From assembly GCA_016786885.1 (NCBI GenBank), contig JAEUVO010000052.1, positions 12,930-76,929 on the forward strand: a stretch of 64,000 nt of DNA. Reading direction: 5' to 3'. Shown piece by piece: positions 42,426 to 64,000 of this stretch (the first letter of the stretch is position 1; each line of letters starts with the position of its first letter). Source of the DNA: Chitinophagaceae bacterium (GTDB lineage Bacteria; Bacteroidota; Bacteroidia; Chitinophagales; Chitinophagaceae). The notes under the pieces are model-generated. The model did not search any database and was not told the DNA's origin. It saw nothing but the letters and a program-made list of their open reading frames with translations. The position numbers and the translations under genes are program-made.

Positions 42426-43637
42426 TTAAAATAGCCTGGCAATCTGATACACTCCTGCTGCCAGCAAAGCACTGATAGGAATAGTAAGTACCCATGCCCA
42501 GATTAGGTTGATCGTTACTCCCCATCTGACGGCAGATAATCTCTTTGTAGCACCTACTCCCATAATGGCACCTGTGATGGTGTGGGTGGTACTTACAGGA
42601 ATCTTCAAGGCTTCAGTAATGAAAAGGGTCAATGCGCCGGCAGTTTCTGCAGCTACTCCCTCAAAAGGAGTGACTTTGGTGATCTTGGTGCCCATAGTCT
42701 TTACAATCTTCCAGCCACCACTCATGGTGCCGAGCCCGATTGCAGCATAACATGCAATAGGTACCCAGTCAGGCATTTGTTTGAAATCAGTAATTGTACC
42801 GCCAGCTATTAACGCAGCTGTAATGATTCCCATTACTTTTTGCGCATCATTACCACCGTGCCCAATACTGAATGCGGCTGATGAGATCAATTGTAACCTT
42901 TTAAACCACTGATTTGCTTTATGTGCATTCAGATTGCTCAGGTAAAGAGAAAAAGAAGCCATTACGAGCAAAATGAAGGATAACAGGATCCATTTGAAAT
43001 TTTTCGAATAAAAAATGACCTGGCTGATATAATTTTCATAATGTGTTTTTTTCGCCAGCACCTCTTTATTAAACTCAAGACTAATAGCGAGAAAAATGAT
43101 AACGAAAATTATCACACAAACGGAAAATATTTTTGATGTCCAGCCTTTTTTAAAGGAGCTTAAGAACCATAAAGACATAATGAAGGCCATCACCATACCA
43201 ATGAGGGGCGCCAGGAAAATAAAACTGGCGGTTCTGATAATGATAGATGAATTAACTGCCTCAAATCCTCCTGCTGCAATAGCTGCGCCGGCAAAACCGC
43301 CGATCAGTGTGTGTGAAGATGAAGAAGGAATGCCCAGCCACCATGTCAACAGGTTCCAGGCTATGGCTGCTATTAGGCCGGAAAAAATAACGACCATCAT
43401 ATTACCTTCCAGTATATGATCAGGCTTTACTGTTTTAGCAACAGTATCAGCAACGCCATGGTCTTTGAAGATAAAGAAGGCTATAGAATTAAATACTGCA
43501 GCCCACAAAACTGCCTGGAAAGGAGTAAGTACTTTGGTAGACACTACAGTGGCAATAGAATTGGCCGCATCGTGAAAGCCGTTGATATAATCAAATATCA
43601 GTGCTAGAGCTATGATGGTTATGAGAAAAGGTGTCAT
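42426..43637 (-). CDS. Inorganic phosphate transporter, PiT family
   Basis: NGFHDAANS, PSSSSHTLIG, HGGNDAQK, PVSTTH. Confidence 0.96.
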   Translation of the reverse strand: MTPFLITIIALALIFDYINGFHDAANSIATVVSTKVLTPFQAVLWAAVFNSIAFFIFKDHGVADTVAKTVKPDHILEGNMMVVIFSGLIAAIAWNLLTWWLGIPSSSSHTLIGGFAGAAIAAGGFEAVNSSIIIRTASFIFLAPLIGMVMAFIMSLWFLSSFKKGWTSKIFSVCVIIFVIIFLAISLEFNKEVLAKKTHYENYISQVIFYSKNFKWILLSFILLVMASFSLYLSNLNAHKANQWFKRLQLISSAAFSIGHGGNDAQKVMGIITAALIAGGTITDFKQMPDWVPIACYAAIGLGTMSGGWKIVKTMGTKITKVTPFEGVAAETAGALTLFITEALKIPVSTTHTITGAIMGVGATKRLSAVRWGVTINLIWAWVLTIPISALLAAGVYQIARLF

Positions 43638-43672
43638 AAATATTAGTCAGATGATGGAGTAATAGCTGGTGC

Positions 43673-44323
43673 TTATGCGTATTTGATGATTATTGACTCT
43701 ATCACATTACTGGCGTCTTCACATTTATCAGTAACAATCTCCATTACCTGGTATATTTCTCTTTTTTTGATTACTTCTTTGGCATCTGGCTCCGTAGCGA
43801 ACAGTCTTTCAATACTCATATCAAAAATATCGTCTGCCTGGTTTTCAATGCTGTTTATTTTCACCAAAGCCTCGGTGATATTGCGCATATTTTTCATATC
43901 CCGCAGTTCAGTTACCGCAATTTTTACCTGCTGGCAGCTTTGTTCAATTAACTCAGAAAATTTCTGCATTCCCATATCATTAGGATTTACCCGGTAGAAA
44001 TTGATCTTTTTGGCAGAAGCATAGATATAGTCAGCAATATCATCCAGCGAAGTGGCCAGGTAGTGAATGTCTTCCCTGTCAAACGGGGTAATGAAATTAC
44101 GGCCGAGTTCAGTGAACAGGTTGTGGGTCAGTTCATCATTGGCATGTTCCAGATCTTCGATCTGTATGATCAGGGCAGCTCTTTTATCAAAATCAGGTTC
44201 CGCTACCACATCTTTGAGCTGGGAGCCCATTTTGGATACGTTGTCAGCTACTTTTTCGAATAATTCATAAAATACCTTGTTCTTCGGCATGAAGATCTTC
44301 AGAAAAGAATTGAGTCCGGCCAT
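43673..44323 (-). CDS. DUF47 (PhoU-like) phosphate-transport regulator
   Basis: LEHANDE, FITPFDREDI, ENQADDIF, DKCEDA; directly upstream of PiT. Confidence 0.94.
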   Translation of the reverse strand: MAGLNSFLKIFMPKNKVFYELFEKVADNVSKMGSQLKDVVAEPDFDKRAALIIQIEDLEHANDELTHNLFTELGRNFITPFDREDIHYLATSLDDIADYIYASAKKINFYRVNPNDMGMQKFSELIEQSCQQVKIAVTELRDMKNMRNITEALVKINSIENQADDIFDMSIERLFATEPDAKEVIKKREIYQVMEIVTDKCEDASNVIESIIIKYA

Positions 44324-44420
44324 AGTGTTTATTTTAGTTTCGGTTCCGGTTATATGCCGGATGACGATGGTTTGCGAAAATACCGGGTAGTTAAGAGGGG
44401 GTAGCGGGGGTCGGAAGAAT

Positions 44421-44470
44421 TAATAATAACTTAATATATAAATAAAATTAGGGTAACAATTCAATAACAA
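44421..44470 (+). promoter_or_regulatory. 11-bp-periodic TAA(C)A array (Pho-box-like) upstream of the porin
   Basis: TAATAA 44421, TAATAT 44432, TAAAAT 44443, TAACAA 44454, TAACAA 44465. Confidence 0.6.
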
Positions 44471-44504
44471 AGACTTTATATTGCAGCAATTTTAAGCATA
44501 TATC

Positions 44505-45836
44505 ATGTTTTCGGCAAAACAACTGCTGTTAAAGTACCTGTTATCTTCGCTTTTCGCCTTTTTCTTTTTTCTGAGCAGTTATTCTCAGCGATACCTTTCT
44601 GATATTGATTCTTCTTTCTTTATCAAGGATACTGTCAGGCCGGTCATAAAGCGATTCGAAAATCTGCGTATTACCGGGTATATCCAGCCGCAGTTTCAAA
44701 GGGCCCAATCAGACGGCGCTCCCTCATATACAGGGGGTAATTTTTCAGCATTCTCCAGCAGCCGGTTTATGCTTCGCCGGGCAAGGGTGAAGATCGACTA
44801 TGTGATGCCTTCAAAATTAAAATATCCCCGGGCACTTTTCTCCTTTCAGATAGATGCTACTGAAAGAGGGGTAATTGTGCGGGATATGTTTTTAAAGCTA
44901 TTTGAAACTAAGCGAAATCTTTTTTCTTTAACAGCCGGGTTGTTTGCCCGCCCGTTTGGATATGAAGTCAACCTTTCATCTGCATTCAGGGAAACACCGG
45001 AAAGAGGCAGAATGTCTCAGATATTAATGCCCTCTGAAAGAGATATCGGGGTAATGGTATCACATGAACCACAGGAAACGAAGCGACAGCGATCTCGATT
45101 TAAATTTGATCTTGGATTTTTTAACGGGCAAGGATTATCCGGTACGACAGATTTTGATAGTCATAAAGATCTTATTTCAAGAATGTTTGTACGGCCCTTT
45201 ACCAATCAAAAGATCGAGTTGTCAGGAGGGTTGTCTTACCTGAGGGGTGGATGGAAGAATGGAACCAGGTACGTATACGAAAGCGGAATTGCCGCTAATG
45301 GAGATCATATATTTATTATAGACTCCTCTGCGTCAAATCTTGGAAGATCTTCACCCCGGCATTACTATGGCGCCGATTTTCAATGCAAGTTTCGGCATAA
45401 ATGGGGGGAAAGTGAATGGAGAGCCGAGTATTGGTTTGGAACTCAACCAGGCACGACTGTTTCCACCAGTAATCCGGGAACTCTGCCAACATCAAATGGT
45501 AACCCTGTTCCCACTTATGTCCGGCATTTTGATGGGATATTCTTACTCTTTTTGCAGAATATTATTACTGCCGATCACCAACTGATGATAAAGTATGACT
45601 GGTATGATCCAAACATAAAAGTATCCAAGCTGGAAATTGGCAAACCAGGTACTAACCTTACCATAGCAGATATAAAATTTTCAACTTTAGGTATCGGTTA
45701 TTCTTATCACCTAAACCCCCAGACCAAACTCATCCTGTATTATGATATTGTGAAGAATGAAACCACCCAAATGACTGGCTATTCTGCTGATCTGAAGGAT
45801 AATATTCTGACCTGCCGCCTTCAATTCCGGTTCTAA
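44505..45836 (+). CDS. Porin, phosphate-selective O/P-like
   Basis: FMLRRARVKIDY, FQIDATERG, GLFARPFGYE, RDIG, FNGQG, C-terminal RLQFRF. Confidence 0.8.
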   Translation: MFSAKQLLLKYLLSSLFAFFFFLSSYSQRYLSDIDSSFFIKDTVRPVIKRFENLRITGYIQPQFQRAQSDGAPSYTGGNFSAFSSSRFMLRRARVKIDYVMPSKLKYPRALFSFQIDATERGVIVRDMFLKLFETKRNLFSLTAGLFARPFGYEVNLSSAFRETPERGRMSQILMPSERDIGVMVSHEPQETKRQRSRFKFDLGFFNGQGLSGTTDFDSHKDLISRMFVRPFTNQKIELSGGLSYLRGGWKNGTRYVYESGIAANGDHIFIIDSSASNLGRSSPRHYYGADFQCKFRHKWGESEWRAEYWFGTQPGTTVSTSNPGTLPTSNGNPVPTYVRHFDGIFLLFLQNIITADHQLMIKYDWYDPNIKVSKLEIGKPGTNLTIADIKFSTLGIGYSYHLNPQTKLILYYDIVKNETTQMTGYSADLKDNILTCRLQFRF

Positions 45837-45845
45837 AGCCGCACT

Positions 45846-45922
45846 TAACATTCCGGTAACATTCCCATCATAATTGGTTAACATGGGGGTAACATACCAG
45901 TAATGTAGCGGACACAACTTTG
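45846..45922 (+). promoter_or_regulatory. Six-unit 11-bp-periodic TAACAT array (Pho-box-like) plus -7 element CAACTTTG
   Basis: TAACAT at 45846, 45857, 45879, 45890; TCATAA 45868; TAATGT 45901; CAACTTTG 45915-45922. Confidence 0.8.
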
Positions 45923-45938
45923 CCGCAAATAACCATGT

Positions 45939-48755
45939 ATGTATTTCAGGCTGCGATTATTGTTAAGTGTATTGTTGCTCACTGCTTTTGTATCTCTGCA
46001 TGCCCAATCAATAAAACTTTCGGGTAAGGTTGTTAACAAAAAAAATGAACCACTGCAGGGAGCTACAATTGTTATCAGCGGTGCCGGAAAGCAAGTACAG
46101 GCTGATGTGGAAGGAAAGTTTTATGTAACACTTGAGGCAGGTAAAAAATATACCATCACTGTTTCTAATACCGGCTATCAGACCAAAGAAATAACTGATG
46201 TAGATGTAACGGCTAACCAGGATAATTACCTGGAGATTGTTTTGGAAGATAAGTCAAGCCTTGAGGGGGTGACGATCAGAACATCATCCAGAAGACAAGA
46301 GAATACGACTGCCCTTCTGACTTTTCAAAGAAGTAACACAGCCCTTTCCAGTGGTCTGGCTGCAGACTTTATCCGCCGTACGCCTGATAAAAATACAGGG
46401 GAGGTCTTGAAAAGAGTAAGTGGTACCAGTATACAGGATAACAAATTTGTTATTGTCCGTGGCTTAAGCGACAGGTATAATTCTGCTTTGATCAACAATG
46501 CACAGCTGCCAAGTACAGAGCCTGATAAAAAAGCATTTTCATTTGATGTGATTCCTTCTACACTTATTGATAATATTATCATTAATAAAACAGCCACACC
46601 AGAATTGCCGGGAGAGTTCGCAGGCGGATTGATACAAATAAATACTAAGGATGTACCCACCAGGGATCTGCTTAGTGTTGGTGTAAGCTGGGGCTTCAAT
46701 ACTCAATCAGTGTTCCAGGATTTTATCAGCAATGAGAGGAATGCGAATGACTGGCTCGGTTTTGATGACAGAACAAGGGGATTGCCTAAAGGCTTTCCTA
46801 CTTCTGCACAGGCTTACAGGGCATTAGGGGGTACTACTACCGGTATTCAGCAGCAGATTGAATACAGCAAGTTGTTTAATAATGATGTATACAACGAAAA
46901 AACCACTACAGCTCTACCTTCACAAACTTACAGTCTCACCTGGGGAACAAGCAAGAAATTTAAAAATGGCGGCACATTGGGCAATATACTATCTGTTCAA
47001 TATCGCAACAGTATGCTGAAATATGATGTGGAAAGAAGATTACATGAAGATGATGGAGATGTACTGGTGCAGTTATTTGATGAACAGAACAGATATAGTG
47101 TAAATGTTGGTGCTCTTGCCAATATTTCTTATGTGAAGGGAAGACATAAAATTTCTTTCAAGAATTTATTTAACCAGCTGTTTGAAGATAATTATTATAC
47201 CCGTGGTGGTGTTAGTAATGACCGTATCCAGGATATCAATTTCCGTTCTTCAGTACTAAACCAGCGTTCATTATACAGCGGACAAATTGAAGGCAACCAC
47301 CAACTGACCAATAGTGGTATCAAACTGATGTGGAATGGCAACTTTGCCTATAACTGGAAGTCACAGCCAGATCTACGCACTTCGGCTTATTTCCGTGGAA
47401 AAGGAACCAATGATCCTTTTGAATTTAACGATGACGACACCCGTCGCTTTTTCAGTGACCTGAAGGATTATAGCTACGGCGCTACAGGAAGCCTGACCAT
47501 TCCATTTGTTTTCAAGAAACAAAAGCAAACATTCAAGGCCGGAGGGTCAACTTTAATCCGTATCCGTGATTTCCGCAGCCGCATTTTCCGCTATGAACCG
47601 GCGAATGTATCTCAGTTTGACGCAACTAAGAACCAACTTCCTTACAACCAAATATTCGCCCAGGAAAATATAGCACTGGATGGATTTAAGATCCTCGATT
47701 TTACCAATAACCAGGATAAATATTTTGGTGTGTCTGTACTGAACGGTATGTATGGCATGTTCGATAATAAGTTTGGAGAGCAAGTACGGCTGGTATGGGG
47801 TGTAAGAGTGGAAAACTTCCAGCAGTTTCTTACTACAAGAGATGTGACGGCTAAAAGAGTAGTAGTAAATACAGAAAAATGGGATGTGCTTCCTTCTTTC
47901 AACTTTACACTTTCTCCCAATAATAAACACAGTATACGGGTAGCGGGCAGCCGCACAGTAGCCAGACCGGAATTCAGAGAGATCGCACCTTTCTCTTTCT
48001 TTGATTACGAAGTGAACTATGCAGTAAATGGAAATCCGGATCTGAAAAGAACTTCCATTCTCAATGGGGATGTTCGTTATGAATTTTATCCCAAAGGTGG
48101 TGAAGCAATCACTATCGGCGCCTTTTACAAAAACTTTGATGACCCGATTGAACTACGACTGAATCCTTCGAGTGTATTGGACAGACGTAACTATGAGTAT
48201 ACCAATGCTGACAAGGCTTACTCAATCGGTGCTGAATTTGAAGTAAGAAAAAATCTTGATTTCCTAAGTAAATCACTGGAGAATTTCAGCGCCTTTATCA
48301 ATCTTACTTATATCTATTCAAAGGTTACTCTTGCTTCTACTTCCGGAACCGGCAGTGCTACTACTTCTAACCGTCCTTTACAAGGGCAATCTCCTTACCT
48401 GGCCAATTTGGGGTTACAGTATAACAGCAAGAAGGGCGGATGGAATGGTTCGTTGCTGTACAACAGGATCGGTCAGCGGCTGGCACTGGTTGGAATAAAT
48501 GACCTGGGTTTCCCGGATATATATGAAAGACCCCGTGACCAGGTAGATCTGCAGATCGCCAAAAAAATATTCAAAGACAGGGGTGAATTGAAACTTACTT
48601 GGGCAGATATCCTGAACCCCGCTTATTATTTCTATGAGAATGTGGACAGCAAGAAAGCATACAGCGGTGGTAATGACAGGTTGTTCTACTCCTATACACC
48701 GGGTTCAACCATTTCAATTGGTTTCACCTACGATTTCAATGTTGGAAAAAAATAA
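45939..48755 (+). CDS. TonB-dependent receptor
   Basis: Signal peptide, carboxypeptidase-like N-domain, plug (RGLSDRYNS, FDVIPS, LPGEFAGG), TVARPEFRE, GNPDL, C-terminal barrel strands. Confidence 0.94.
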   Translation: MYFRLRLLLSVLLLTAFVSLHAQSIKLSGKVVNKKNEPLQGATIVISGAGKQVQADVEGKFYVTLEAGKKYTITVSNTGYQTKEITDVDVTANQDNYLEIVLEDKSSLEGVTIRTSSRRQENTTALLTFQRSNTALSSGLAADFIRRTPDKNTGEVLKRVSGTSIQDNKFVIVRGLSDRYNSALINNAQLPSTEPDKKAFSFDVIPSTLIDNIIINKTATPELPGEFAGGLIQINTKDVPTRDLLSVGVSWGFNTQSVFQDFISNERNANDWLGFDDRTRGLPKGFPTSAQAYRALGGTTTGIQQQIEYSKLFNNDVYNEKTTTALPSQTYSLTWGTSKKFKNGGTLGNILSVQYRNSMLKYDVERRLHEDDGDVLVQLFDEQNRYSVNVGALANISYVKGRHKISFKNLFNQLFEDNYYTRGGVSNDRIQDINFRSSVLNQRSLYSGQIEGNHQLTNSGIKLMWNGNFAYNWKSQPDLRTSAYFRGKGTNDPFEFNDDDTRRFFSDLKDYSYGATGSLTIPFVFKKQKQTFKAGGSTLIRIRDFRSRIFRYEPANVSQFDATKNQLPYNQIFAQENIALDGFKILDFTNNQDKYFGVSVLNGMYGMFDNKFGEQVRLVWGVRVENFQQFLTTRDVTAKRVVVNTEKWDVLPSFNFTLSPNNKHSIRVAGSRTVARPEFREIAPFSFFDYEVNYAVNGNPDLKRTSILNGDVRYEFYPKGGEAITIGAFYKNFDDPIELRLNPSSVLDRRNYEYTNADKAYSIGAEFEVRKNLDFLSKSLENFSAFINLTYIYSKVTLASTSGTGSATTSNRPLQGQSPYLANLGLQYNSKKGGWNGSLLYNRIGQRLALVGINDLGFPDIYERPRDQVDLQIAKKIFKDRGELKLTWADILNPAYYFYENVDSKKAYSGGNDRLFYSYTPGSTISIGFTYDFNVGKK

Positions 48756-48799: not shown

Positions 48800-50152
48800 A
48801 TGAAGAAGATTCTTTTCGGTGCACTGGCTTTTATAGCGCTTTTCAGTACACCCTCTTGTGTGAAGGTGAATTTTGATGAAGGAGAGGTAATTACTCCTGC
48901 ACCCGACCCTACCAGTAATGTTATCACAGGGGTTATTTCCTCCAGTAAGTTTTATGCAAAGGGAAAGTGGGTGTTGAAAGGATATGTGTATGTAACAGAA
49001 GGTGCCACTATTACTTTTGAAGCTGGTTGTGTTGTTCAGAGTGATATTACAGAGAAGGGTGCGCTGATCATTGAAAGGGGCGCCAAGCTGATTGCTTCCG
49101 GAACAAAAGATAACCCGATTGTATTCACCAGCGGAAAAGCTGTTGGATCAAGAGCACCCGGTGATTGGGGTGGTATTATTTTATTAGGTAAAGCGCCAAC
49201 CAATCGTCCGCTTGACCCGGCTCCAACTATCGAAGGTGGTGTAGGCCGCCAGTACGGCGGAATTGATCCGCTGGACGAAAGTGGTATCCTGCGTTTCGTT
49301 CGTATTGAGTATGCAGGTATTGCAGCAGAACCCGGATCTGAAATAAATGGGTTAACCTGTGGTGGTGTTGGTTCAGGCACTATTATCGAGAACGTACAGG
49401 TTTCTTTTGGAAATGATGATGCATTTGAATTCTTTGGGGGTACCGTAAATGCCAAGAACCTTATCGCTTTTGCAACAGCGGATGATGATTTTGATTTCGA
49501 CTTTGGGTATAGTGGAAAAATTCAGTTCGGTATTTCTATGCGTAAACCGGATTTTGTTGATGCAGGTGATGCCGGAAACGGTATTGAGTGCGACAATGAT
49601 GGTAGCGGAACCAACGCAACTCCTGTTACAAAACCACAATTAAGCAATTTTACTTTTGTGGGACCAAATGATGCGACCGGTACAGCAGCCAATCATAATT
49701 ATTCAAACCGCTGGAGAAGAAGAACACAGTTTATTCTTCGCAACTCAATCCTGATCGGGCATCCTGATGCAGGCTTCTCCATGGAATCTGATGGCACACT
49801 TAATGATTATTACGTAAATAATATTTCAGAATTCAAGAATAACCTGGTTCATGCCACTGCTAATGTGTACCGCTCAGGTAATACTGCTATTGCTACCGCA
49901 GCACAGATCCAGGCAAAGGCTGAAAGTGAAGGTTGTGTTACTCTGGCTACATCAGCAGCAGCTCAGTTAACCAGTCCTTTTTACTCTACCACACCTAATT
50001 TTTTACCTGCGACCGGCTCACCTGCATTAAGCGGTTCAAGTTTTACCGGTATGAATGCTTTCTTTACTGCTACTACTTACCGTGGCGCTATGGGAACTAC
50101 AGACTGGACAGCTACCTGGACCAACTGGGATCCGCAGAACAAGGCCTATTAA
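48800..50152 (+). CDS. Lipoprotein of unknown function, probable beta-helix fold
   Basis: Cys after hydrophobic leader (TPSC), GDWGGIILLGKAP, SGILRFVRIEYAG, DDAFEFFGG, DDDFDFDFG, NGIECDN. Confidence 0.8.
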   Translation: MKKILFGALAFIALFSTPSCVKVNFDEGEVITPAPDPTSNVITGVISSSKFYAKGKWVLKGYVYVTEGATITFEAGCVVQSDITEKGALIIERGAKLIASGTKDNPIVFTSGKAVGSRAPGDWGGIILLGKAPTNRPLDPAPTIEGGVGRQYGGIDPLDESGILRFVRIEYAGIAAEPGSEINGLTCGGVGSGTIIENVQVSFGNDDAFEFFGGTVNAKNLIAFATADDDFDFDFGYSGKIQFGISMRKPDFVDAGDAGNGIECDNDGSGTNATPVTKPQLSNFTFVGPNDATGTAANHNYSNRWRRRTQFILRNSILIGHPDAGFSMESDGTLNDYYVNNISEFKNNLVHATANVYRSGNTAIATAAQIQAKAESEGCVTLATSAAAQLTSPFYSTTPNFLPATGSPALSGSSFTGMNAFFTATTYRGAMGTTDWTATWTNWDPQNKAY

Positions 50153-50176
50153 TCTTTAGATACAGAATAACTGAAT

Positions 50177-50680: not shown

Positions 50681-51886
50681 TCAGTTGCGTGGGGTGTAAG
50701 CATAAGCCACTTCATACACCTTTTTGTTCAAGCCAGGTATTAATTGTCCCAGTTTTAAATCCTGTTTCTGCGGAGTGGGTTCGCAAACAGAATATTTTTC
50801 ACCATTATAGATGATAGGTGTGCCAACCGGTTTATCAAACCTTACCGCAATGGTAACATGTTCCGGGAAGGCCAGTACTATCATCGGCAGATTATAGATC
50901 TCCTTTACCAAGCAAAAGAACAGGGCTGCCCTGTCGTCACAATCACTTTGTTCATACAGGAGTGTTTGTTCAGGGCTCAGTCTTTTTTCATTTCCAAACT
51001 GCCTGCTGTCAGGCTCAAACAAAAATGCATAACGGGTGAAGCGCATCAGGAAATCGATGCCGTTTTTTTGGTTCATTCCTTTGACATGTTTTTTCAGGTC
51101 GGGAATCAGTGAGCTGTAGGTTTCTTTGCTGAGGGGAATATTAAAGTAAGATTCATAATCAACCACCGGGTAGTTGGCAAAAATTGTTTTTATCTGCGGG
51201 TTCAGCCTGAGTTTGAAATGATAATCCAGCTCGTTATAGTTGAAGCTGATCTCTTTTTCCTGGTAATCTGTTTTATTAAAATCGGGCAGATGTGTCACTT
51301 TGTACGAAAACCCTTTCACAGCGCCGGGCACAGGTATGATTACTTCTGTAAATATCTCTTTTTCAAAATTGATGATTCCGTAGTCATGATAGTTCAGGCA
51401 TATATACTGCTTGCCATTACGCAGGCGGCCCGGTATATTATAGATGTTCTCATCTGTTTGTACGTAAAATAATATCCTGTCTGCTTTTATACTCAGTATT
51501 GCATCATATCCTGAACCAGTGAGCAGAAACCATTTATACAATGTGTAGCGGTGATAATTGGCGGCTTTAGGACTTATATGCTGAGCCGTTTTCCGGATCA
51601 GCTGGTAGTAGAGCCAGTCATCCAGCCGGTATTGTTCTTTGTATTGCTGCAATGCTTTTATAAGCGATGAATAATCTCTGGTTACCATGGTTTGGTAGAA
51701 ACCCTGAACTGTTTTTTCTGACAATGAGGCAGTAAAATCGACAAATAAGGATTGTTCAAAAGGGAGGTTTACCGGTTCGCCATAAAAGTCAAAATTGATA
51801 GAGGCTTCCGTCTGCCGGGCTTCGGATGAGGCGGGGGCCAGGCAGGCAGCCAGCAGGAGTGATAATATGTAAAGCTTTGTTTTCAT
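50681..51886 (-). CDS. Secreted protein with transglutaminase-like Cys-His motif
   Basis: Signal peptide; SDCDDRAALF, AFPEHVTIAV, VCEPT motifs. Family assignment is inference. Confidence 0.7.
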   Translation of the reverse strand: MKTKLYILSLLLAACLAPASSEARQTEASINFDFYGEPVNLPFEQSLFVDFTASLSEKTVQGFYQTMVTRDYSSLIKALQQYKEQYRLDDWLYYQLIRKTAQHISPKAANYHRYTLYKWFLLTGSGYDAILSIKADRILFYVQTDENIYNIPGRLRNGKQYICLNYHDYGIINFEKEIFTEVIIPVPGAVKGFSYKVTHLPDFNKTDYQEKEISFNYNELDYHFKLRLNPQIKTIFANYPVVDYESYFNIPLSKETYSSLIPDLKKHVKGMNQKNGIDFLMRFTRYAFLFEPDSRQFGNEKRLSPEQTLLYEQSDCDDRAALFFCLVKEIYNLPMIVLAFPEHVTIAVRFDKPVGTPIIYNGEKYSVCEPTPQKQDLKLGQLIPGLNKKVYEVAYAYTPRN

Positions 51887-51980
51887 ACAGGCTCTGTATA
51901 AAGCTACAAAAACTTAACAATAAGGTAATATTAAATTTTTCATTTCTCAATAATTACCCCTAATCCGTTGTTTTAATCAG

Positions 51981-52035
51981 TAATTATTAATTAATGCGCT
52001 CGTAACAACCCGGTAATAATGATGAATGAATTTTA
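51981..52035 (+). promoter_or_regulatory. Four-unit 11-bp TAA array plus -7-like GAATTTTA, with no credible gene downstream
   Basis: TAATTA 51981, TAATGC 51992, TAACAA 52003, TAATAA 52014; GAATTTTA at 52028, 14 nt after the last unit as at 45901-45915. Confidence 0.55.
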
Positions 52036-52039
52036 CAGC

Positions 52040-52137
52040 AGTTCTTAGTCCGGTTACAAATGGCGTTAGTAAGGATCGCCGGTGGAAAATTCTCATGCAG
52101 TTGCCACCCTGGTACGTTCTGTACAGGGTGGTTTTTT
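52040..52137 (+). ncRNA. Candidate Pho-regulated small RNA (~100 nt)
   Basis: Bounded by the promoter above and by a plus-strand terminator, although both flanking genes are on the minus strand. Confidence 0.45.
52103..52137 (+). terminator. Plus-strand intrinsic terminator
   Basis: CCACCCT(G)GTAC-gttct-GTACAGGGTGG followed by TTTTTT; no U tract on the minus strand. Confidence 0.75.
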
Positions 52138-52154: not shown

Positions 52155-53183
52155 TTAATAAATTTCTCTCAGAAGTATTTCTTCATCTTTCTGCTCTGCT
52201 ACAGGGAGCGAAAAGACATATTCAAGTGATTTGGCAATACTATCTGAATAGTCTTTTCGAATAACTGGCGAACTTTCCATCCAGCTATCGAAATGTGAAG
52301 TAAAATTTTTATCGATTGCAGGCAGGCATGTAATACCCAGTTTTGTAAGGGCAGCGGCATTAGATTCCTGTTCATACTGGCCGCTGATGGGGATAGCGAG
52401 GATTTTTTTTCCAAGATGAAGCGCTTCCGCAGGAGTTTCAAAACCGGCGCCGCAGATTATTCCGGAACAGGTGATAAGGCTTTTATTGAACATGCCTTTG
52501 TTGACGGGTATAAAACGGATATTTTCTTCTTGTCTTATTCTATCTGTTTCTCTTGAGAAAATTTCAAACTGAATGCCGGGGAAAGCCTGAAAAATTGATT
52601 TAAGTTGTGGTTCGCAGTAAGATGGCAGGTAAACAGTAATATGATTACCGTCTGATGGCTCTGCCTGCAGTATTTCATTTTTTATAACAGGTCCAAAAAT
52701 AAAATCGTCGTAGGATTCAAAATGAAGCCCTGCATGATATGTTGCTTTTATGTATTGTTTCAGCAGGTATTCTCCGGTTATACTTTTTTTATCGGGCCTG
52801 GGAGTATGTGGCGACTGAAAGCTGGCCTGGTGGCCAAAATGAACAGAGGGTATTTTTTTGCGGACACAGGCTGCTGATGTGATGTAATCGAAATCATTCA
52901 GGATAAGATCATATTTTTCTACCGGCAGATCCCGGATCTCCTGTTTTACCCTCAATGGTTGAATTTTTTTGATCATCTGCCAGTAATCCAACCCACCCTT
53001 GCAATTATAGTAAAGGCTGATGCCTTTGCTGCGGTATTTAATCGGGGCATCAAGTTGAAGATTACTGTTATCTCCGCTCAGAAAGATATCAACCGTTCCA
53101 TATTCCTGCAAATACGGGAGTAAGGTCATCGCCCTGCTGATATGCCCGTTACCGGTAGCCTGAACTGCGTAGAGTATTTTCAT
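52155..53183 (-). CDS. GT-B glycosyltransferase (MJ1255/Glyco_trans_1_3-like); start MKILYA at 53183
   Basis: YAVQATGNGHISRA, LNDFD, ICGAGFETPAEALHLGK, GQYEQESNA. Confidence 0.85.
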   Translation of the reverse strand: MKILYAVQATGNGHISRAMTLLPYLQEYGTVDIFLSGDNSNLQLDAPIKYRSKGISLYYNCKGGLDYWQMIKKIQPLRVKQEIRDLPVEKYDLILNDFDYITSAACVRKKIPSVHFGHQASFQSPHTPRPDKKSITGEYLLKQYIKATYHAGLHFESYDDFIFGPVIKNEILQAEPSDGNHITVYLPSYCEPQLKSIFQAFPGIQFEIFSRETDRIRQEENIRFIPVNKGMFNKSLITCSGIICGAGFETPAEALHLGKKILAIPISGQYEQESNAAALTKLGITCLPAIDKNFTSHFDSWMESSPVIRKDYSDSIAKSLEYVFSLPVAEQKDEEILLREIY

Positions 53184-53193
53184 TTTGCATTTA

Positions 53194-54036
53194 TTAATGA
53201 AGGGAATTAATAAATAGGCCGATCTCATCCGTTATCACACTCAACGTAGGTATCTTTTTATTCATTTGTATAATATTCGCTCCTGTAAACTCTTTTTCAT
53301 CATATTGATAGATAGTCCATTCATTATTTGTGAACTCAAGAGAAGTGAGGTTCTCGATCCAGTCACCGCTATTTAAGTAGATTACCGTCCCGTTCTTTGT
53401 TTCTATTAATTTCTTTTGCGGCTGGTGTATATGACCGCAGATCACATAATCGTATCCTTTTTCGATGGCCAGTTCTGCTGCAGTTTGTTCAAAATCTGCA
53501 ATCCAGCTCACGGCTTTCTTTACACTGTTTTTTATTTTCTTGCTGAAACTCATTTTTGGCCGACCCAATTTTTTCAGCCACCAGTTGATGAAACGATTGC
53601 AGAGTATCAGCCAGTCGTAACCAAAGCCTCCCAGTTTGGCAATGATCTTTGCACTGCCTTTGGTGGTATTGTCAAATACATCACCGTGGAATACCCATGT
53701 CATTTTTCCATTGATCTCTACCACCAGTTTGTCCACCAGCTGAAAGTTGCTTAGCTGAATGCCGCTGTAGCGGCGAAGCATCTCATCATGATTGCCTGTG
53801 ATGTATACTACTCTTGTGCCATTATCAAGAAGATTCATGATCTCTTTTATTACCTGGAGGTGAGATGGAGGGAAATAACGTTTGCTGAACTGCCAGCCAT
53901 CAATTATATCTCCATTCAGAACGAGAAGGCGTGGCGAAATACTTTGCAGGTAATTGACAATTTCTTTTGCATGGCAACCATAGGTGCCAAGGTGCAGGTC
54001 TGAAATGACGGCAACGTCAAGATTTCTTTTTTTCAA
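53194..54036 (-). CDS. Calcineurin-like metallophosphoesterase (LpxH/PlcP-like); TTG start
   Basis: SDLHLG, NGDIID, GNHD, HGD, CGHIH, NSGDW. Confidence 0.9.
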   Translation of the reverse strand: MKKRNLDVAVISDLHLGTYGCHAKEIVNYLQSISPRLLVLNGDIIDGWQFSKRYFPPSHLQVIKEIMNLLDNGTRVVYITGNHDEMLRRYSGIQLSNFQLVDKLVVEINGKMTWVFHGDVFDNTTKGSAKIIAKLGGFGYDWLILCNRFINWWLKKLGRPKMSFSKKIKNSVKKAVSWIADFEQTAAELAIEKGYDYVICGHIHQPQKKLIETKNGTVIYLNSGDWIENLTSLEFTNNEWTIYQYDEKEFTGANIIQMNKKIPTLSVITDEIGLFINSLH

Positions 54037-54130: not shown

Positions 54131-54191
54131 ATACATACTTGCTGGTGTATATATTATTCAAATGTTACCAGGCAAAAAATTATTGAACTAT

Positions 54192-59133: not shown

Positions 59134-59242
59134 ATATTTCGAAATAGCATAGCAGCAGTTTTCTCATGCAAGCAGAGCAATCAGTAAGCGTAAACAAAGG
59201 CGGAACTTTTCTAAGTTTCGCTCCTTTTTAAAATTTTTGGAT

Positions 59243-61963
59243 ATGATCATTAGATATGTTCAGCCAATTTTATACCTATTAATTCATTTCGTTGCAAGTA
59301 CGCAAAATCATAAGCAGATAATAACCTTGCAGGTTCCGGGCAAAGACCAGTATGCTGTGATAAAGGAGAAAGGGGTTTCTGTTTTGCCAAGTGGTAGGTT
59401 TGTAACACCTGCAGGACAGATGATTCGTATCACCCATGATCCGTTTGGAATGGCGCTTTCACCTGATGGTAAGAAGGCTGTAACGCTGCACAACGGAGTT
59501 TTTACCATTATAGACCTTGTTACTCTCGGTCATACCCGTGTTCCATCATATGATAAAAAAATTACTTCGCCATTATCAAACGGATCTTTTTTGGGTGTTG
59601 CATTTTCACCTGATTCCAAAACAGTTTTTCTGAGTGGCGGAGATAACGGAGCGGTTATTATGTATGATATAGAAGAATTTCAGCGTATTGATTCAATTTC
59701 ATTAAACGGGCGGATTGATGGCATTGACTATACAGAGAGTTTTACTTCAGACCTGTTATTAAATGAAAATAACAACGAATTGCTAGTATTGGACAGGGGA
59801 AATTTTCGCCTGGTCAGAATTAACCTGGATTCTAAAAAGTTAACTGCTTCAATAAAGACTGGTCGCCAGCCTTTCGGGTTATCAACCAGCCCAGATAAGA
59901 AACTAGCTTTTGTTGCCAATGTGGGCATGTACTCCTATCCACTGGTGAAAGGAATGGACTCCACAAACTATAATTCTATGATGATCAACTGGCATCCATA
60001 TGGAGATAATACAGTTGAATCAATAAACGGCATTGTAATTGACGGAAAGAAAATCCCTGGTGTAGGGAGTCCTTTATCTCCAGAGGCTATGAGTGTGTTC
60101 ACTATTGACCTTGCAACAAACAAGGTGATCGATAAGTTTAAAACCGGCCATCAGATAGGGCAGATGATTGAGGATGCAGAAGTTGTGGGTGGAGCCAGCC
60201 CCAATTCTATCGCTGTTGGCAGCAGATACGCTTATGTAACCAATGCCACTAATGATAACATTTCTGTTATTGACTATACAACAAGGAAAATCATTTCTCA
60301 TATTCCGATCTCTGTTGATAAACGGATTGATAAATACCGTGGATTATTGCCATTTGGTATCACGTTGAGCAGAGATGAGAAAACATTGTATGTGGCCTTG
60401 CTTGGTTTCAATGCGGTGGCGGTTATTGATATAAATACGAAACTGACAAAGGGGCTGATACCAACCGGCTGGGGACCTGCCAGGGTACAGTTGTCCAAAG
60501 ATGAAAAAGAAATTTATGTTATCAGCTGTCGTGGCTTGGGGGCCGGTCCAAATGGAGGAGAGGGCTTTATTAAGCCAGTGCAGGGAACTTATGTTGGCGA
60601 TATTCAGCTGGCTACTTTTCAAAAAATCATTATGCCAGATGAAAAACAACTGGCTGATTATACAAGACAGACTATTGATAATACTATGCAGGCAGTGAGT
60701 GTAAATGATGATGAGAACAATCCACTGCCTGCATTGCCAAAACTCAGGCAAAGCCCTATCAGGCATATTGTTTATATCACTAAAGAAAACAGAACTTATG
60801 ATGAGGTGATGGGGCAGTTAAAAACCGGCAAAGGTGACCAGACACTGGCCAGGTATGGTGTAAATGTGAATGTGTACGGGAAAAACGATACTCTGAAAGT
60901 TTCTAATGCCGATGTGATGCCCAATCATAACAAAGCAGCAACTGAATTTTCTTATAGCGATAATTTTTATTGCGACAGCGATGCCTCTATTCATGGGCAT
61001 CACTGGATGGTTGGAGTGATACCTAATGAATGGGTTGAAGCCAACTCCAGTGTGAGTAAGACAGCTGACTACTTTTCTACTGCACCTGGTCGCCGGTTCC
61101 CGGGAAGTACCGGTAGTATGGACCCCGAAGATTACGCAGAAACCGGGGGTCTGTGGGAAGCACTAGAGAGAAACAAAATTTCATTTTACAATTTTGGTGA
61201 GGCAAATGAAACAGCACATGTAAGAGAAGAATGGTATGATACATTAACCGGGGCTGCACATGCAGTAATGGTACCCATGCAAAAAGCTTTGTGGAGCCGT
61301 ACTTCTCATAATTATGCTGGCTATAATACTAATATACCTGACCAGTTCAGGATGGAACAATTTGAAACAGAATTTACCAGAATGTGGATCGAAGGAAAAG
61401 AAGAGTTGCCGCAACTGATAACTATGCAGGTTCCCAATGATCATGGAGCCGGGCCGAGACCTGAGGATGGTTACCCATATGCACATTCATATATGGCGGA
61501 TAATGACCTGGCTGTTGGCAGAATCCTGCATTTTCTTTCCCGTACAAAATACTGGAAGAATATGCTGGTAATAATTACAGAAGATGATCCACAAGGCGGA
61601 GTGGATCATGTAGATGCTCACAGGAGTATTTTGCTGATGGCCGGCCCATATATAAAACGTAATTATGTTTCTCATACCCATGCAAACTTTGGTTCCATTC
61701 TGAAAATGATATATAATATCCTTAATATTGATTATGTGAATCAATATGATGTAACAGCATCGTTGTTGCAGGATTTCTTTACAGATAAGCCTGATTATAC
61801 ACCCTATAATTTTGTATTTCCTGATAAGAGAATATTTGATACACAAAAAGCCATGCAGCGATATAATAGAAGTATCGACTGGAAAAAAATTCAGCAAGGG
61901 CCAAAGATGGACGATGAAGATCAGCAGCGTACCGACCATTATAAGCAAAAGACTAACGAATAA
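59243..61963 (+). CDS. YncE-like beta-propeller fused to phosphoesterase (AcpA/PlcH, alkaline-phosphatase superfamily) domain, paralog A
   Basis: LPSGRFVTPAG, propeller repeats (KLAFVAN, YAYVTNA, TLYVAL), KENRTYDEV, FYCDSDASIHGHHW, PNDH, DNDLAVG, EDDPQGGVDHVDAHRS. Confidence 0.9.
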   Translation: MIIRYVQPILYLLIHFVASTQNHKQIITLQVPGKDQYAVIKEKGVSVLPSGRFVTPAGQMIRITHDPFGMALSPDGKKAVTLHNGVFTIIDLVTLGHTRVPSYDKKITSPLSNGSFLGVAFSPDSKTVFLSGGDNGAVIMYDIEEFQRIDSISLNGRIDGIDYTESFTSDLLLNENNNELLVLDRGNFRLVRINLDSKKLTASIKTGRQPFGLSTSPDKKLAFVANVGMYSYPLVKGMDSTNYNSMMINWHPYGDNTVESINGIVIDGKKIPGVGSPLSPEAMSVFTIDLATNKVIDKFKTGHQIGQMIEDAEVVGGASPNSIAVGSRYAYVTNATNDNISVIDYTTRKIISHIPISVDKRIDKYRGLLPFGITLSRDEKTLYVALLGFNAVAVIDINTKLTKGLIPTGWGPARVQLSKDEKEIYVISCRGLGAGPNGGEGFIKPVQGTYVGDIQLATFQKIIMPDEKQLADYTRQTIDNTMQAVSVNDDENNPLPALPKLRQSPIRHIVYITKENRTYDEVMGQLKTGKGDQTLARYGVNVNVYGKNDTLKVSNADVMPNHNKAATEFSYSDNFYCDSDASIHGHHWMVGVIPNEWVEANSSVSKTADYFSTAPGRRFPGSTGSMDPEDYAETGGLWEALERNKISFYNFGEANETAHVREEWYDTLTGAAHAVMVPMQKALWSRTSHNYAGYNTNIPDQFRMEQFETEFTRMWIEGKEELPQLITMQVPNDHGAGPRPEDGYPYAHSYMADNDLAVGRILHFLSRTKYWKNMLVIITEDDPQGGVDHVDAHRSILLMAGPYIKRNYVSHTHANFGSILKMIYNILNIDYVNQYDVTASLLQDFFTDKPDYTPYNFVFPDKRIFDTQKAMQRYNRSIDWKKIQQGPKMDDEDQQRTDHYKQKTNE

Positions 61964-61973
61964 ATAAAAAGCA

Positions 61974-64000
61974 ATGAGAAAAACGTTACTGTTATCCTTA
62001 TGCTCCTTTCTTATACTGCCCTCATTCGGGCAGGATAAAACTACCTCTGCTATAAAAGCCCGGTTAGAAAAAAAGAAGGTTTCTTTACCCAATGGCTGGA
62101 TATTGTCACCTGCGGGCCGTTCTTTACCGCTTGGAGACCTTCCATTGAATATAGCCGTGTCTAAATCAAAAAAATTGATTGCGGTTACCAACAACGGACA
62201 AAGTGTGCAGAGCATACAGTTAATTGATGTGAAAACGGAAAAGGAACTGGACCGGATAATTGTGCCAAAAGCATGGTATGGTTTGAAGTTCAGCGCTGAT
62301 GAAAGATTTTTATATGCCAGCGGCGGAAACGATAACTGGATTTTGAAGTTCGTACTTCAAAATAAAAAACTGGTATTGACCGACAGTATTCAGCTTGGTC
62401 AAAAATGGCCGGAAAAAATTTCTCCTGCAGGTATTGACATTGATGATGATACGAAAAAGATGTATGTAGTTACAAAGGAAAACAACTCACTGTATGTAGT
62501 GAATCTTGTTTCAAAAAATATCATTTATAAAGACACATTACTGGAACCTGCATATTCCTGCCTTTTGTCAAACAATAAAAAAGAACTCTATATTTCTTCC
62601 TGGGGTGGGAAAAAAATACTGGTATTTGATGTGAGTTCAAGAAAAATAACTGCACAAATACATGTTGGTGAAAACCCTAATGAATTGCTGCTTTCCAAAA
62701 ACGGCAAATTATTATTTGTTGCCAATGCCGGCGATAATGCAGTTTCTGTAATTGATATAGCCAGCCGTAAAGTCCTGGAAGTACTTAATGCAGCTTTATA
62801 TCCGGATGCACCCACAGGGTCAGCCAGTAACGGGCTTGCATTAAGTGAGGATCAGCAAACACTCTATGTGGCCAATGCAGATAACAATTGCCTGGCGGTT
62901 TTTGATGTAAGCAAACCGGGTTTCAGTAAATCAAAAGGATTTATTCCTGTTGGCTGGTATCCTACTAATGTCAAAGTAATTGGTAAAAAAATATTTGTAA
63001 GTAATGGCAAAGGCCTTTCATCATTACCTAATGCCAAAGGTCCTGATCCATCCAAGCATGACCAGGAAGTAAATTACCAGCACGGTGATTACAAAAATAA
63101 ACAGAGCCAGATACAATACATTGCCGGATTGTTTAAAGGTACTATGAGTATCATAGACGAACCGGGTGCTGGGCAATTGAGTATTTATTCAGAAGCTGTT
63201 TATCAAAATACACCTTACACTAAAGAAAAGGAACTGAATGCAAAAGGAGAGGCTGGTAACCCCATTCCCATGAAAGTGGGTGATGCATCTCCCATAAAAT
63301 ATGTGTTTTACATTATTAAAGAAAACAGAACTTATGACCAGGTGCTCAGTGACATGCCCGGTGGTAATGGCGATACAAGTTTATTATTGTTTGGGAAAAA
63401 AATAACGCCTAACCAGCACAAGCTTGCGGCCGAGTTTGTACTGCTTGATAATTTTTATGTAGATGGGGAAGTAAGCGCTGATGGACATAACTGGAGTACT
63501 GCTGCCAATGCCAATGACTACCTGGAGAAAACATGGCCTACTGATTATGGTGGTCGTGGTGGTAATTATGATGCAGAGGGTAACCGGGAAGTTTCAAATC
63601 CAGATCGGGGATTTATCTGGGATTATTGCAAAAGGGCCGGCGTGAGTTACAGAACCTACGGTGAATTTGCAGATGATTACAAAGCCAATATTAAAGTGCT
63701 GGAAAATCATTTTTGCCCTTATTACACCAGTTGGGATGAAAGTATAAAAGATACCACAAGGTTTTATCAATGGAAAAGAGAATTCGACTCTCTGTTAGCA
63801 GTCAATGCTGTTCCCCGGTTTAATTCACTCAGGTTTATCAATGACCATACAGAGGGACAAAGATTGGGGAAGCCCACACCATTTGCCCATGTGGCTGATA
63901 ACGATCTGGCCGTTGGAATGTTTGTGGAGTATCTGTCTAAAAGCCCGATTTGGAAAGAATCGGCAATTTTTATTATAGAAGATGATGCACAAAATGGCCC
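61974..64000 (+). CDS. YncE-like beta-propeller fused to phosphoesterase domain, paralog B, truncated by window end (absent from ORF track)
   Basis: Manual translation from ATG 61974: MRKTLLLSLCSFLILPSFGQ, LPNGWILSPAG, propeller repeats, KENRTYDQV, FYVDGEVSADGHNW, NDHTEG, DNDLAVG, EDDAQNG. Confidence 0.92.
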   Translation, partial: MRKTLLLSLCSFLILPSFGQDKTTSAIKARLEKKKVSLPNGWILSPAGRSLPLGDLPLNIAVSKSKKLIAVTNNGQSVQSIQLIDVKTEKELDRIIVPKAWYGLKFSADERFLYASGGNDNWILKFVLQNKKLVLTDSIQLGQKWPEKISPAGIDIDDDTKKMYVVTKENNSLYVVNLVSKNIIYKDTLLEPAYSCLLSNNKKELYISSWGGKKILVFDVSSRKITAQIHVGENPNELLLSKNGKLLFVANAGDNAVSVIDIASRKVLEVLNAALYPDAPTGSASNGLALSEDQQTLYVANADNNCLAVFDVSKPGFSKSKGFIPVGWYPTNVKVIGKKIFVSNGKGLSSLPNAKGPDPSKHDQEVNYQHGDYKNKQSQIQYIAGLFKGTMSIIDEPGAGQLSIYSEAVYQNTPYTKEKELNAKGEAGNPIPMKVGDASPIKYVFYIIKENRTYDQVLSDMPGGNGDTSLLLFGKKITPNQHKLAAEFVLLDNFYVDGEVSADGHNWSTAANANDYLEKTWPTDYGGRGGNYDAEGNREVSNPDRGFIWDYCKRAGVSYRTYGEFADDYKANIKVLENHFCPYYTSWDESIKDTTRFYQWKREFDSLLAVNAVPRFNSLRFINDHTEGQRLGKPTPFAHVADNDLAVGMFVEYLSKSPIWKESAIFIIEDDAQNG

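Follow-up and report, generated by a model that had tools for sequence, protein, structure and literature searches.

The question raised by this 64-kb stretch of DNA from an uncultured genus of Chitinophagaceae (the window; C51:12930-76929) is whether the transporter, receptor, phosphoesterase and lipid-modifying genes that fill its last third form a single response to phosphorus starvation and, if they do, which regulator and which promoter code would hold them together. The genome assembly comprises 3.98 Mb and is 99.3% complete; its contigs (genome G000) carry C numbers, compared loci carry L numbers, G011 is a congener, and positions without a prefix refer to the window. Gene content was read from the open reading frame (ORF) map together with domain scans (Pfam, NCBIfam). 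A preliminary description had read the last 21 kb as a phosphorus island, and the island holds up, but not at that size: it measures about 34 kb (C51:55355-87800) and continues along the contig for about 12 kb after the window ends, so that the window holds one share of it. Judged from sequence, this would be a conserved Chitinophagaceae Pho-regulon island, a phosphorus economy controlled by PhoB/PhoR, with a probability of roughly 85%.

Gene content is the first line of evidence. The ORF map and domain scans bear out the gene list drawn up earlier: a PiT transporter with a DUF47 protein, a porin, a TonB-dependent receptor (TBDR1) with a lipoprotein, a PlcP-like enzyme with a glycosyltransferase (GT), and a SusCD pair with two phosphoesterases (PE1 and PE2). 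From the window end up to the PhoB-like gene follow the remainder of PE2, a second TonB receptor (TBDR2), phosphonate-type genes, DUF5690, an alkaline-phosphatase (AP)-superfamily protein, a pyruvate-kinase-like protein, and a PhoR-like kinase. Domain models past the window end match a PhnZ-like HD oxygenase (TIGR03276, 210 bits), a PhnX-like hydrolase (TIGR03351, 216 bits), and an FAD oxidoreductase (TIGR03364, 435 bits, above cut-off). The canonical PstSCAB-PhoU signature of a Pho regulon was not found, as neither PstS (TIGR00975) nor PstC (TIGR02138) has a match in the genome; there is only an orphan PBP_like_2 protein (C55:38292-39287), and PiT is therefore the only recognised inner-membrane importer of inorganic phosphate. 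Pst is likewise absent from plant-associated Bacteroidetes (PMC8115612).

The second line of evidence is the regulator. As stated earlier, the window contains no response regulator gene; one lies about 10 kb past its end on the same contig. A search for a PhoB-type regulator, which the preliminary description had called for, placed the genome's best PhoB match (227 bits, next best 168) at C51:87064-87723, and PhoB and the PhoR-like kinase together span C51:85927-87750, within the island. The synteny survey also called for, made by tblastn over 44 loci, recovered a family-wide core. In Niastella, Longitalea and others its order is phoB-phoR-(variable)-PlcP-GT-unk401-lipoprotein-TBDR1-porin-DUF47-PiT, where unk401 is an exported 401-aa protein and the variable part may hold genes for DUF5690, HD, AP-superfamily or SusCD proteins; in Paraflavitalea, Pseudoflavitalea and Flavitalea, the stretch PlcP-GT through DUF47-PiT is retained. 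TBDR1 and the 450-aa lipoprotein are syntenic across the family, with the lipoprotein always directly 3' of the receptor, and the PlcP-GT pair is kept in 40 of the 44 related loci. The arrangement of SusC/SusD followed by two PF04185 phosphoesterases recurs in L035, L036, and L051. Species of the genus differ in whether they have the PlcP-GT, SusCD and phosphonate modules, and in several of them phoBR comes right after the lipoprotein or unk401. Indeed, phoBR directly adjoins core genes in Niastella, Longitalea, Puia and many congeners. Of the genomic arguments that the promoter boxes described below belong to PhoB, this physical linkage of box-bearing genes to phoBR is the strongest.

Three observations concern the surroundings of phoBR. 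The pyruvate-kinase-like gene between the AP-superfamily gene and phoR (L005:10436-11875, C51:84435-85874; NF011314, 539 bits, below cut-off) was seen only in this genome's island. The phoB promoter (L005:13790-13830, C51 ~87790-87830) has a direct repeat, TTAAGTnnnnnTTAAG/CTctgtGTAAAC, and a perfect -7 box, TAGGTTTGCG, kept through the genus; Niastella-like genera have a related form of the repeat, TTAAGAaattgTGAACT. The repeat may serve autoregulation at a different affinity, or it may belong to another regulator. An exported protein of at least 540 aa without a Pfam match (L005:13970-15589, C51:87969-89588) is divergent from phoB in nearly every relative (34-81% identity).

The promoters provide the third line of evidence. 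An 11-bp TAACA-like repeat, proposed earlier to be shared by several of them, is real, far from chance and conserved. Strict dimers of the form [GT]TAACA-N5-[GTA]TAA[CT][AG] occur at 18 sites on both strands of the genome, compared with 32-36 in shuffled genomes, and 7 of the 18 fall within 9.7 kb of the window (44453-54173). The strict pattern was derived from the island's own sites, and two less circular tests were therefore added. In a generic genome scan for four phased units, five of the six best arrays lie in the island, one of them beyond the window before the AP-superfamily gene. When a matrix was trained solely on the orthologous receptor promoter at 13 loci outside the genus, the genome's top three matches fell in the TBDR1 array, and the sRNA (small RNA) promoter came within the top 22. 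The hallmark of a Pho box, at least two 11-nt direct repeats at the upstream promoter element, is present in the arrays at 44420-44474, 45845-45910, and 51991-52023. At the porin, TBDR1 and sRNA promoters of this genome, 13-15 nt separate the start of the last unit from the -7 box, and the proximal unit thus occupies the place of the -33 element. These tandem 11-bp arrays are probably regulator docking sites, as predicted from their pattern and position.

Conservation of individual promoters points the same way. The porin promoter block, including a conserved TTAATAATnAnTTAATAtanAaataaaattaggGTAACAattcaATAACAaagacTTTATATTGcag, persists in about 20 species of the genus with diverged sequence on either side, and in other genera the promoter has GTAATAatttcTTAACA before TACCTTTGC. 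The array of TBDR1 (45845-45910) reads TTAACAttccg GTAACAttccc ATCATAattgg TTAACAtgggg GTAACAtacca GTAATGtagcg; its six units are likewise kept between diverging flanks in about 20 congeners, whose proteins are 66-94% identical. Thirteen loci of other genera have TTAATAattccTTAACA-N5-GTAACAtagcgATAACA at this promoter, with the last unit starting at a distance of exactly 15 nt from TACTTTTG, which matches the Bacteroidota -7 element perfectly; the promoter there reads TTAATAattcc TTAACAnnnnn GTAACAtagcg ATAACAnnnnn, and a second array lies further upstream. For the TBDR1 and porin orthologues together, arrays at a set spacing from the -7 box are kept in about 20 congeners and at more than 13 further loci. 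At unk401, TTAACAataagGTAATAttaaa overlaps the -33 region of the promoter (TAAGTTTTTG, minus strand).

Some arrays lie elsewhere in the genome. Among the best four-unit arrays outside the island, C74:52608(-) has a clean -7 box and precedes a gene for a DUF2490 outer-membrane protein and then a PcrB-family gene, and C32:77777(-) precedes a gene for a 507-aa choice-of-anchor-I lipoprotein; both are possible regulon members. Other genomic motif matches (C30, C61, C62; a DUF2306 protein, a symporter and the like) were set aside as they look like chance or unrelated sites.

A mechanism can be proposed from these parts. Under phosphate limitation the PhoR kinase would phosphorylate PhoB, both encoded at the far end of the island, and PhoB dimers would bind head-to-tail on tandem 11-bp [G/T]TAA[C/T]A repeats. 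The array would substitute for the -33 element, its last unit standing 13-15 nt before the Bacteroidota -7 element (TAnnTTTG), and recruit RNA polymerase. The best-supported direct targets would be the OprP-like porin, TBDR1 with the surface lipoprotein, unk401, the AP-superfamily enzyme, and the sRNA of about 103 nt. Three further modules would follow weaker boxes in this genome: the PlcP-like esterase and the GT may swap phospholipid for glycolipid, the PusCD-like SusCD pair and the two propeller-phosphoesterases may capture and hydrolyse organic phosphate, and TBDR2 with the PhnZ-like, PhnX-like, TIGR03364 oxidoreductase and DUF5690 genes may serve phosphonate catabolism. The freed phosphate would be imported via PiT, the genome being without Pst.

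Taken together, the adjacent PhoB/PhoR pair, the arrays conserved across genera, the match to the Riemerella PhoP motif and the conserved sRNA all agree with the phosphorus-economy reading. Several observations weigh against a PhoB-controlled phosphate response of this breadth. PhoB scores below the NCBIfam equivalog cut-offs (TIGR02154, 227.7 versus 296.2; Bacteroides-type NF053854, 216 versus 270), as does the PhoR-like kinase (TIGR02966, 209 versus 334). The phoB promoter has a different repeat, TTAAGT-N5-TTAAGT, about 40 nt upstream of its perfect TAGGTTTG box. The claim of a shared repeat also falls short at some promoters of this genome: the PlcP-GT and SusC promoters show only weak phased units, and a correctly oriented repeat array was looked for at the DUF47-PiT promoter and not found. 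Outside the family, the OprP gene of the analogous Flavobacterium johnsoniae cluster was not induced (PMC8115612), and PhoP of Riemerella anatipestifer is tied by its authors to virulence and aerotolerance rather than to phosphate (PMC9603813), so that a phosphate signal is not proven for the phylum.

Such promoter differences would be expected if only a core, comprising the porin, TBDR1-lipoprotein, unk401, the sRNA and the AP-superfamily gene, were under a TAACA-binding regulator, with PiT-DUF47, PlcP-GT, SusCD-phosphoesterase and phosphonate genes as functional neighbours controlled separately, whether constitutively, by substrate or by another regulator. Strong arrays are indeed found solely at core promoters; the -7 box of DUF47-PiT (TATTTTCG, minus strand, ~44373-44380) is conserved in the genus, yet the promoter lacks a box; the SusCD/phosphoesterase and phosphonate modules are inserted between core and phoBR in a way that varies from genome to genome; and Lidbury et al. 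treat PitA apart from PHO genes (PMC8115612). Against so narrow a regulon, PlcP of other genera has clear boxes 8-25 nt before its -7 box, the phased units before SusC and PlcP in this genome are weak but do exist, and PusCD, PlcP and GT are all strongly induced by low phosphate in F. johnsoniae (PMC8115612). On balance, a regulon confined to the core is unlikely, and the island-wide PhoB/PhoR economy is preferred.

The most unusual member of the island is an RNA. A plus-strand terminator between two minus-strand genes, noticed earlier at ~52100-52140, is present and belongs to a candidate sRNA that is conserved, syntenic and preceded by a Pho box. As read from the DNA, it has what is expected of an sRNA, its own promoter and an intrinsic terminator around a short non-coding transcript. 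The terminator is a hairpin of 11 bp that has a U-tract only when read on the plus strand, and no plus-strand gene lies downstream. The 113-nt region folds with z = -2.76, and UUCUCAUGCAG is predicted to be unpaired between a 5' stem-loop and the terminator.

A BLAST-level search of congeners gave only 4 relatives, and synteny and a covariance model were therefore required to find homologues. The model, built from 10 sequences and applied to 151 sampled genomes of the family (150 genera), finds exactly one full-length match per genome in 14 of the genomes and 13 of the genera. Each match neighbours PlcP-GT, unk401 or the lipoprotein, and upstream Pho-box units accompany most of them. The same layout recurs in the same spacer of many loci: a Pho box of two to four units, a CTTTAC/TTTTGC -7 box, CAGUUCUU, GUUAGUAAG/GGUUAGCAG, UUUCUCAUGCAG, and the terminator. 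In an alignment of 22 sequences, the 11-mer UUCUCAUGCAG does not vary, and compensatory changes are seen at 8 of the 9 terminator pairs; indels after an internal AUG shift the frame between species in this alignment, and the sRNA thus encodes no conserved peptide. RNAalifold gave no consensus structure for the 5' domain beyond the terminator, and a scan of window positions 40000-64000 against Rfam 15 (E<=1) gave no match at all. A literature search for Pho-dependent sRNAs returned only those of other phyla, such as PhoS of Bacillus. The sRNA, and to a lesser degree unk401, look truly undescribed.

Other short units resemble this RNA in part. Niastella-type genera have a variant sRNA (…UUCUCUCAUGUGAC plus terminator), sometimes in two copies, and a second, predicted short transcript driven by a Pho box. 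The GT-unk401 spacer of Niastella- and Paraflavitalea-type genomes holds up to three small terminator-ended units (L039 ~11100-11800; L038, L040-L042, L049, L050, L064, L068), of which one is driven by TTAACG-N5-GTAACA-N5-CTAATA and one or two end in ...UUCUCUCAUGUGACUGAC and GCCGUUCGAUUUCUAUCGUGACGGC; in Paraflavitalea the spacer also holds a small ORF. The SusD-PE1 spacer of the window (59150-59232, plus strand) contains another AGCAGCAGTTTTCTCATGCA...TCAGTAAGCG, with a hairpin and a T-run behind it. It has three short motifs in common with the sRNA, in a different order; its 10-mer TTCTCATGCA occurs four times in the genome, and the element was not found in the equivalent spacer of other genera. 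It could be an RNA derived from a 3' end, an attenuator, or chance. At C84:23802 (+), an intergenic unit without a Pho box has a -7-like TAACTTTAC followed by ...UUUUCUCAUGUUAACGG and ends in a strong terminator; this may be an sRNA unrelated to that of the island, with the UUCUCAUG block in common.

The sRNA most likely acts in trans through its invariant UUCUCAUGCAG, predicted to be single-stranded. The complement of this block, CUGCAUGAGAA, contains AUG-AGA-A, a Met-Arg-Lys start common to exported proteins. Genome-wide searches gave no convincing or conserved target, which counts against this function. The exact 11-mer complement is at no gene start of the genome, and neither the 10/11 matches nor the CAUGAGAA starts are enriched, most of them belonging to Met-Arg-Lys signal peptides. 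The best duplex in the genome (-20.6 kcal/mol, with an exported double amidohydrolase at C15:4323) is within chance for 3169 candidates, and pairing with porin mRNA is alike for cognate and non-cognate pairs (-21.0 versus -20.0 kcal/mol) and is not conserved. In the congener G011 (L022 ~1540-1560; L086 2609-2744), the porin start CGUAUGAGAAAAC is complementary over 12 nt to the seed of that species' own sRNA, GUUUUCUCAUGC; this pairing is absent from the window's genome.

Alternatively, the transcript of about 103 nt might not act in trans at all. It could be a cis element convergent with plcP-GT, with a hairpin that ends or, by antisense pairing, destabilises the read-through 3' end of that operon, or else a by-product of a PhoB site that serves unk401. 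Between the sRNA terminator and the stop codon of GT are 15 nt, and the terminator lacks a U-tract when read on the GT strand, so that GT transcripts probably read through antisense to the sRNA. Moreover, the sRNA always adjoins PlcP-GT or unk401, and the missing conserved target fits a local role. Against a purely local role, the sRNA persists where GT is absent from this position (L087, L089, L090), a -7 box of its own stands at the canonical spacing from the array, and an invariant 11-nt single-stranded block beside a covarying terminator is typical of seed-bearing sRNAs. A cis role is less likely than action in trans. In its fullest form, the trans-acting proposal is that this would be the first riboregulator of a Bacteroidota Pho regulon: a PhoB-activated family across many Chitinophagaceae genera in which UUCUCAUGCAG pairs across start codons (CUGCAUGAGAA) and shuts down translation of dispensable envelope proteins in phosphate starvation, and which, with unk401 and the TBDR1 lipoprotein, marks an uncharacterised core of a Pst-less phosphate response. 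This proposal is quite possible but tentative.

A last alternative, that the 11-bp repeats are operators of another OmpR-family regulator answering iron, envelope/redox stress or carbon and that the phosphorus theme is partly coincidental, can draw on the genome's ~40 receiver-domain matches (including three other full OmpR-type regulators), on the classical iron regulation of TonB receptors and on the resemblance to the motif of ArcA and tie to aerotolerance given for the Riemerella motif (PMC9603813), but it is very improbable against a phosphorus-specific gene content (PiT, OprP-like porin, PhnZ/PhnX-like, PF04185 esterases, PlcP-like esterase), a PhoB-like pair physically linked to box-bearing genes in many genera, and the repression of homologous modules under N and Fe limitation in F. 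johnsoniae (PMC8115612).

Table. Genes, RNA and promoter elements of the island within the window (window positions).
Feature	Position	Strand	Basis or remark
PiT-family inorganic phosphate transporter, 403 aa	42426..43637	-	PF01384 PHO4, E 1.7e-94
DUF47/PhoU_div protein, co-operonic with PiT	43673..44323	-	PF01865, E 7e-21
Porin promoter: five phased units TTAATA, TTAATA, ATAAAA, GTAACA, ATAACA, then -7 box TATATTG (44477-44483)	44420..44483	+	
Exported 443-aa beta-barrel, OprP/OprO-like porin	44505..45836	+	fold match, names of relatives
TBDR1 promoter: six phased units, then -7-like CAACTTTG (45915-45922)	45845..45922	+	
TonB-dependent receptor TBDR1, 938 aa	45939..48755	+	CarboxypepD_reg + Plug + TonB_dep_Rec_b-barrel; TIGR01782-like
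Surface lipoprotein, 450 aa, TBDR1 partner	48800..50152	+	lipobox FSTPSC; precomputed domain PF28492
Intrinsic terminator 3' of 450-aa lipoprotein gene	50177-50205	+	sequence
Small lipoprotein, 150 aa	50219..50671	+	lipobox LTVAC; in only some relatives
unk401, exported 401-aa protein, conserved island member	50681..51886	-	conservation
TTAACAataagGTAATAttaaa, 28 bp upstream of unk401 start, reading away from unk401	51914..51935	+	nearly invariant in every genus examined
sRNA promoter: TTAATG-N5-GTAACA-N5-GTAATA, then -7-like GAATTTTA (52028-52035)	51991..52035	+	
Candidate Pho-regulated sRNA, ~103 nt: 5' ACAGCAGUUCUU, variable stem-loop with GUUAGUAAG, invariant UUCUCAUGCAG, intrinsic terminator	52035..52137	+	between two minus-strand genes
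Glycosyltransferase GT, 357 aa, MJ1255/VC2487 family, co-operonic with PlcP-like gene	52155..53228	-	PF13528, E 2e-28; TIGR00661, 140 bits, below cut-off
PlcP-like metallophosphoesterase, 280 aa	53194..54036	-	PF00149 + PF12850; weak LpxH match, 49.6 bits
GTAACAtttgaATAATAtatac in PlcP/SusC divergent region, ~110 nt upstream of PlcP -7 box TATTTTGT	54152..54173	-	
SusC-like TonB-dependent transporter, 1068 aa	54299..57505	+	CarbopepD_reg_2 + Plug
SusD-like lipoprotein, 531 aa	57538..59133	+	PF12771, E 1.4e-58
PE1, exported beta-propeller + PF04185 phosphoesterase (PLC/acid-phosphatase family)	59237..61963	+	PF04185, YVTN/lactonase repeats
PE2, paralogous propeller + PF04185 phosphoesterase, 826 aa	61974..64000, ends 454 nt past window	+	signal peptide MRKTLLLSLCSFLILPSFG

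Several island proteins deserve a closer look. The 443-aa porin has no Pfam match, none to PF07396 (Porin_O_P) even at E<=5, and is not placed in that family; a profile search against the PDB reached OprO at E 0.24, over the C-terminus only. Its relatives are named 'porin' by NCBI, and a few of them carry PF07396. The best PDB match of its AF2 model (pLDDT 68.6) is OprP (2o4v_A, E 1.4e-10, TM 0.49/0.52), with general porins nearly as good. The protein has about 20 invariant Arg and a C-terminal ...RF. Judged mainly by its modelled fold, it is a porin, probably of the OprP/OprO-like type. For unk401, no sequence match was found in Pfam, NCBIfam or the PDB, and a fold search of the PDB with its confident AF2 model (pLDDT 77.6) gave nothing below E 0.3, menin and PNGase being among the weak matches. 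Both of these are transglutaminase-like folds. Its invariant residues include D315-C316, H343, and C368-E369, and a transglutaminase-like protease, suggested by the invariant Cys, His and acidic residues and the weak menin/PNGase matches, is a guess only. The 450-aa lipoprotein has no sequence relative in the PDB.

The GT overlaps the PlcP-like gene by 35 nt and belongs to PF13528/TIGR00661 rather than to the Agt family of PMC4796936. Housekeeping LpxH was considered for the PlcP-like gene and rejected; a gene at C7:14474-15199 scores 93 bits against the LpxH model compared with 49.6 bits here, and the PlcP-like gene is therefore a paralogue, an LpxH-like metallophosphoesterase distinct from housekeeping LpxH, as expected of PlcP. 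Similarly, the SusC/SusD pair has two PF04185 phosphoesterases downstream in place of carbohydrate-active enzymes, the arrangement that distinguishes PusCD, of which six forms have been described (PMC8115612).

In soil and water, Bacteroidota play a major part in recycling organic phosphorus, and to our knowledge experiments have mapped their phosphate response in only a few strains of Flavobacterium. Chitinophagaceae appear to keep a compact, conserved version of this response wired to a clear operator code, which could be used to predict the Pho regulons of uncultured members from genome data alone. The locus also pins down conserved proteins and RNA of obscure function, namely unk401, the receptor-associated lipoprotein and the sRNA, that are testable in cultured relatives such as Niastella and Paraflavitalea; Niastella yeongjuensis DSM 17621 and Paraflavitalea have both the arrays and the variant RNA. 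A Pho-dependent sRNA, if true, would add a post-transcriptional layer undescribed in Bacteroidota.

The closest known system is that of F. johnsoniae. Phosphate depletion, and only phosphate depletion, induces a phoBR-linked TonB transporter (Fjoh_0545) and a downstream hypothetical lipoprotein (Fjoh_0546) in this species; glycosyltransferase Fjoh_0541, PlcP and phosphoesterase-flanked PusCD pairs are also induced by this condition alone, and an OprP gene lies in the same cluster of a genome without Pst (PMC8115612; Lidbury et al. 2021). The clustering had been offered earlier as a candidate undescribed system; given this comparable low-phosphate-induced cluster of phoBR, TonB-dependent transporter, lipoprotein, GT and OprP, together with the PusCD loci, the island is instead a new example of a described kind. 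The PUSIV 'PhoBR operon' (Fjoh_0541-0549) likewise combines phoBR with a TonB transporter followed by a lipoprotein, an OprP-type porin and a lipid-remodelling GT. F. johnsoniae also has, like this genome, SusCD-like pairs (the PusCD loci PUSI-III) with phosphoesterases and not glycoside hydrolases at their sides, has PlcP and PitA, and lacks Pst. Unlike in F. johnsoniae, the modules in Chitinophagaceae are fused in one island of about 34 kb with phosphonate genes, the two being compared by gene type. The GT partner of F. johnsoniae is listed with pf04101; unk401 and the sRNA are extra conserved members here that PMC8115612 does not mention, and no promoter motif is reported there.

Individual parts also have counterparts. 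PlcP-Agt operons have predicted upstream Pho boxes, and Flavobacteria are among the PlcP carriers (PMC4796936; Sebastian et al. 2016). The pair described here similarly places an LpxH-like metallophosphoesterase beside a GT, but this GT is of the MJ1255/VC2487 family (PF13528) and not Agt, and its lipid role is a proposed one. The porin resembles OprP/OprO of Pseudomonas (PDB 2o4v, 4rjw) in its best fold match, its size, a weak C-terminal match to an OprO profile and its invariant arginines, but it lacks a significant PF07396 match, and the fold search scores general porins almost as high. PhoS of Bacillus, an sRNA from the 3' untranslated region of phoPR, has its transcription stimulated by the Pho response regulator (PMC11522486). 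Both PhoS and the sRNA described here are encoded inside a Pho locus; the latter has its own promoter, no sequence in common with PhoS, a Bacteroidota host, and a Pho control that is predicted.

The operator has the clearest precedents. In Escherichia coli, the PhoB-bound Pho box consists of two 11-nt direct repeats that replace the -35 element (PMC4415409). The arrays of the island are similar in their 11-bp-phased direct repeats abutting the promoter, and their four to six units would fit several dimers. PhoP of Bacillus subtilis is known for TT(A/T/C)ACA repeats. For PhoP of R. anatipestifer, a motif from DAP-seq with TTTAACA as its most conserved nucleotides, and binding confirmed by electrophoretic mobility shift assay, are reported in PMC9603813. 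The core TTAACA found here is identical to the core of that motif as given there, so that a Pho-type operator of Bacteroidota can no longer be claimed as unknown, and the match also supports binding by PhoB/PhoP. Repeat architecture is not described in the available part of the Riemerella report (PMC9603813), whereas the array of the Chitinophagaceae island is defined relative to the Bacteroidota -7 element.

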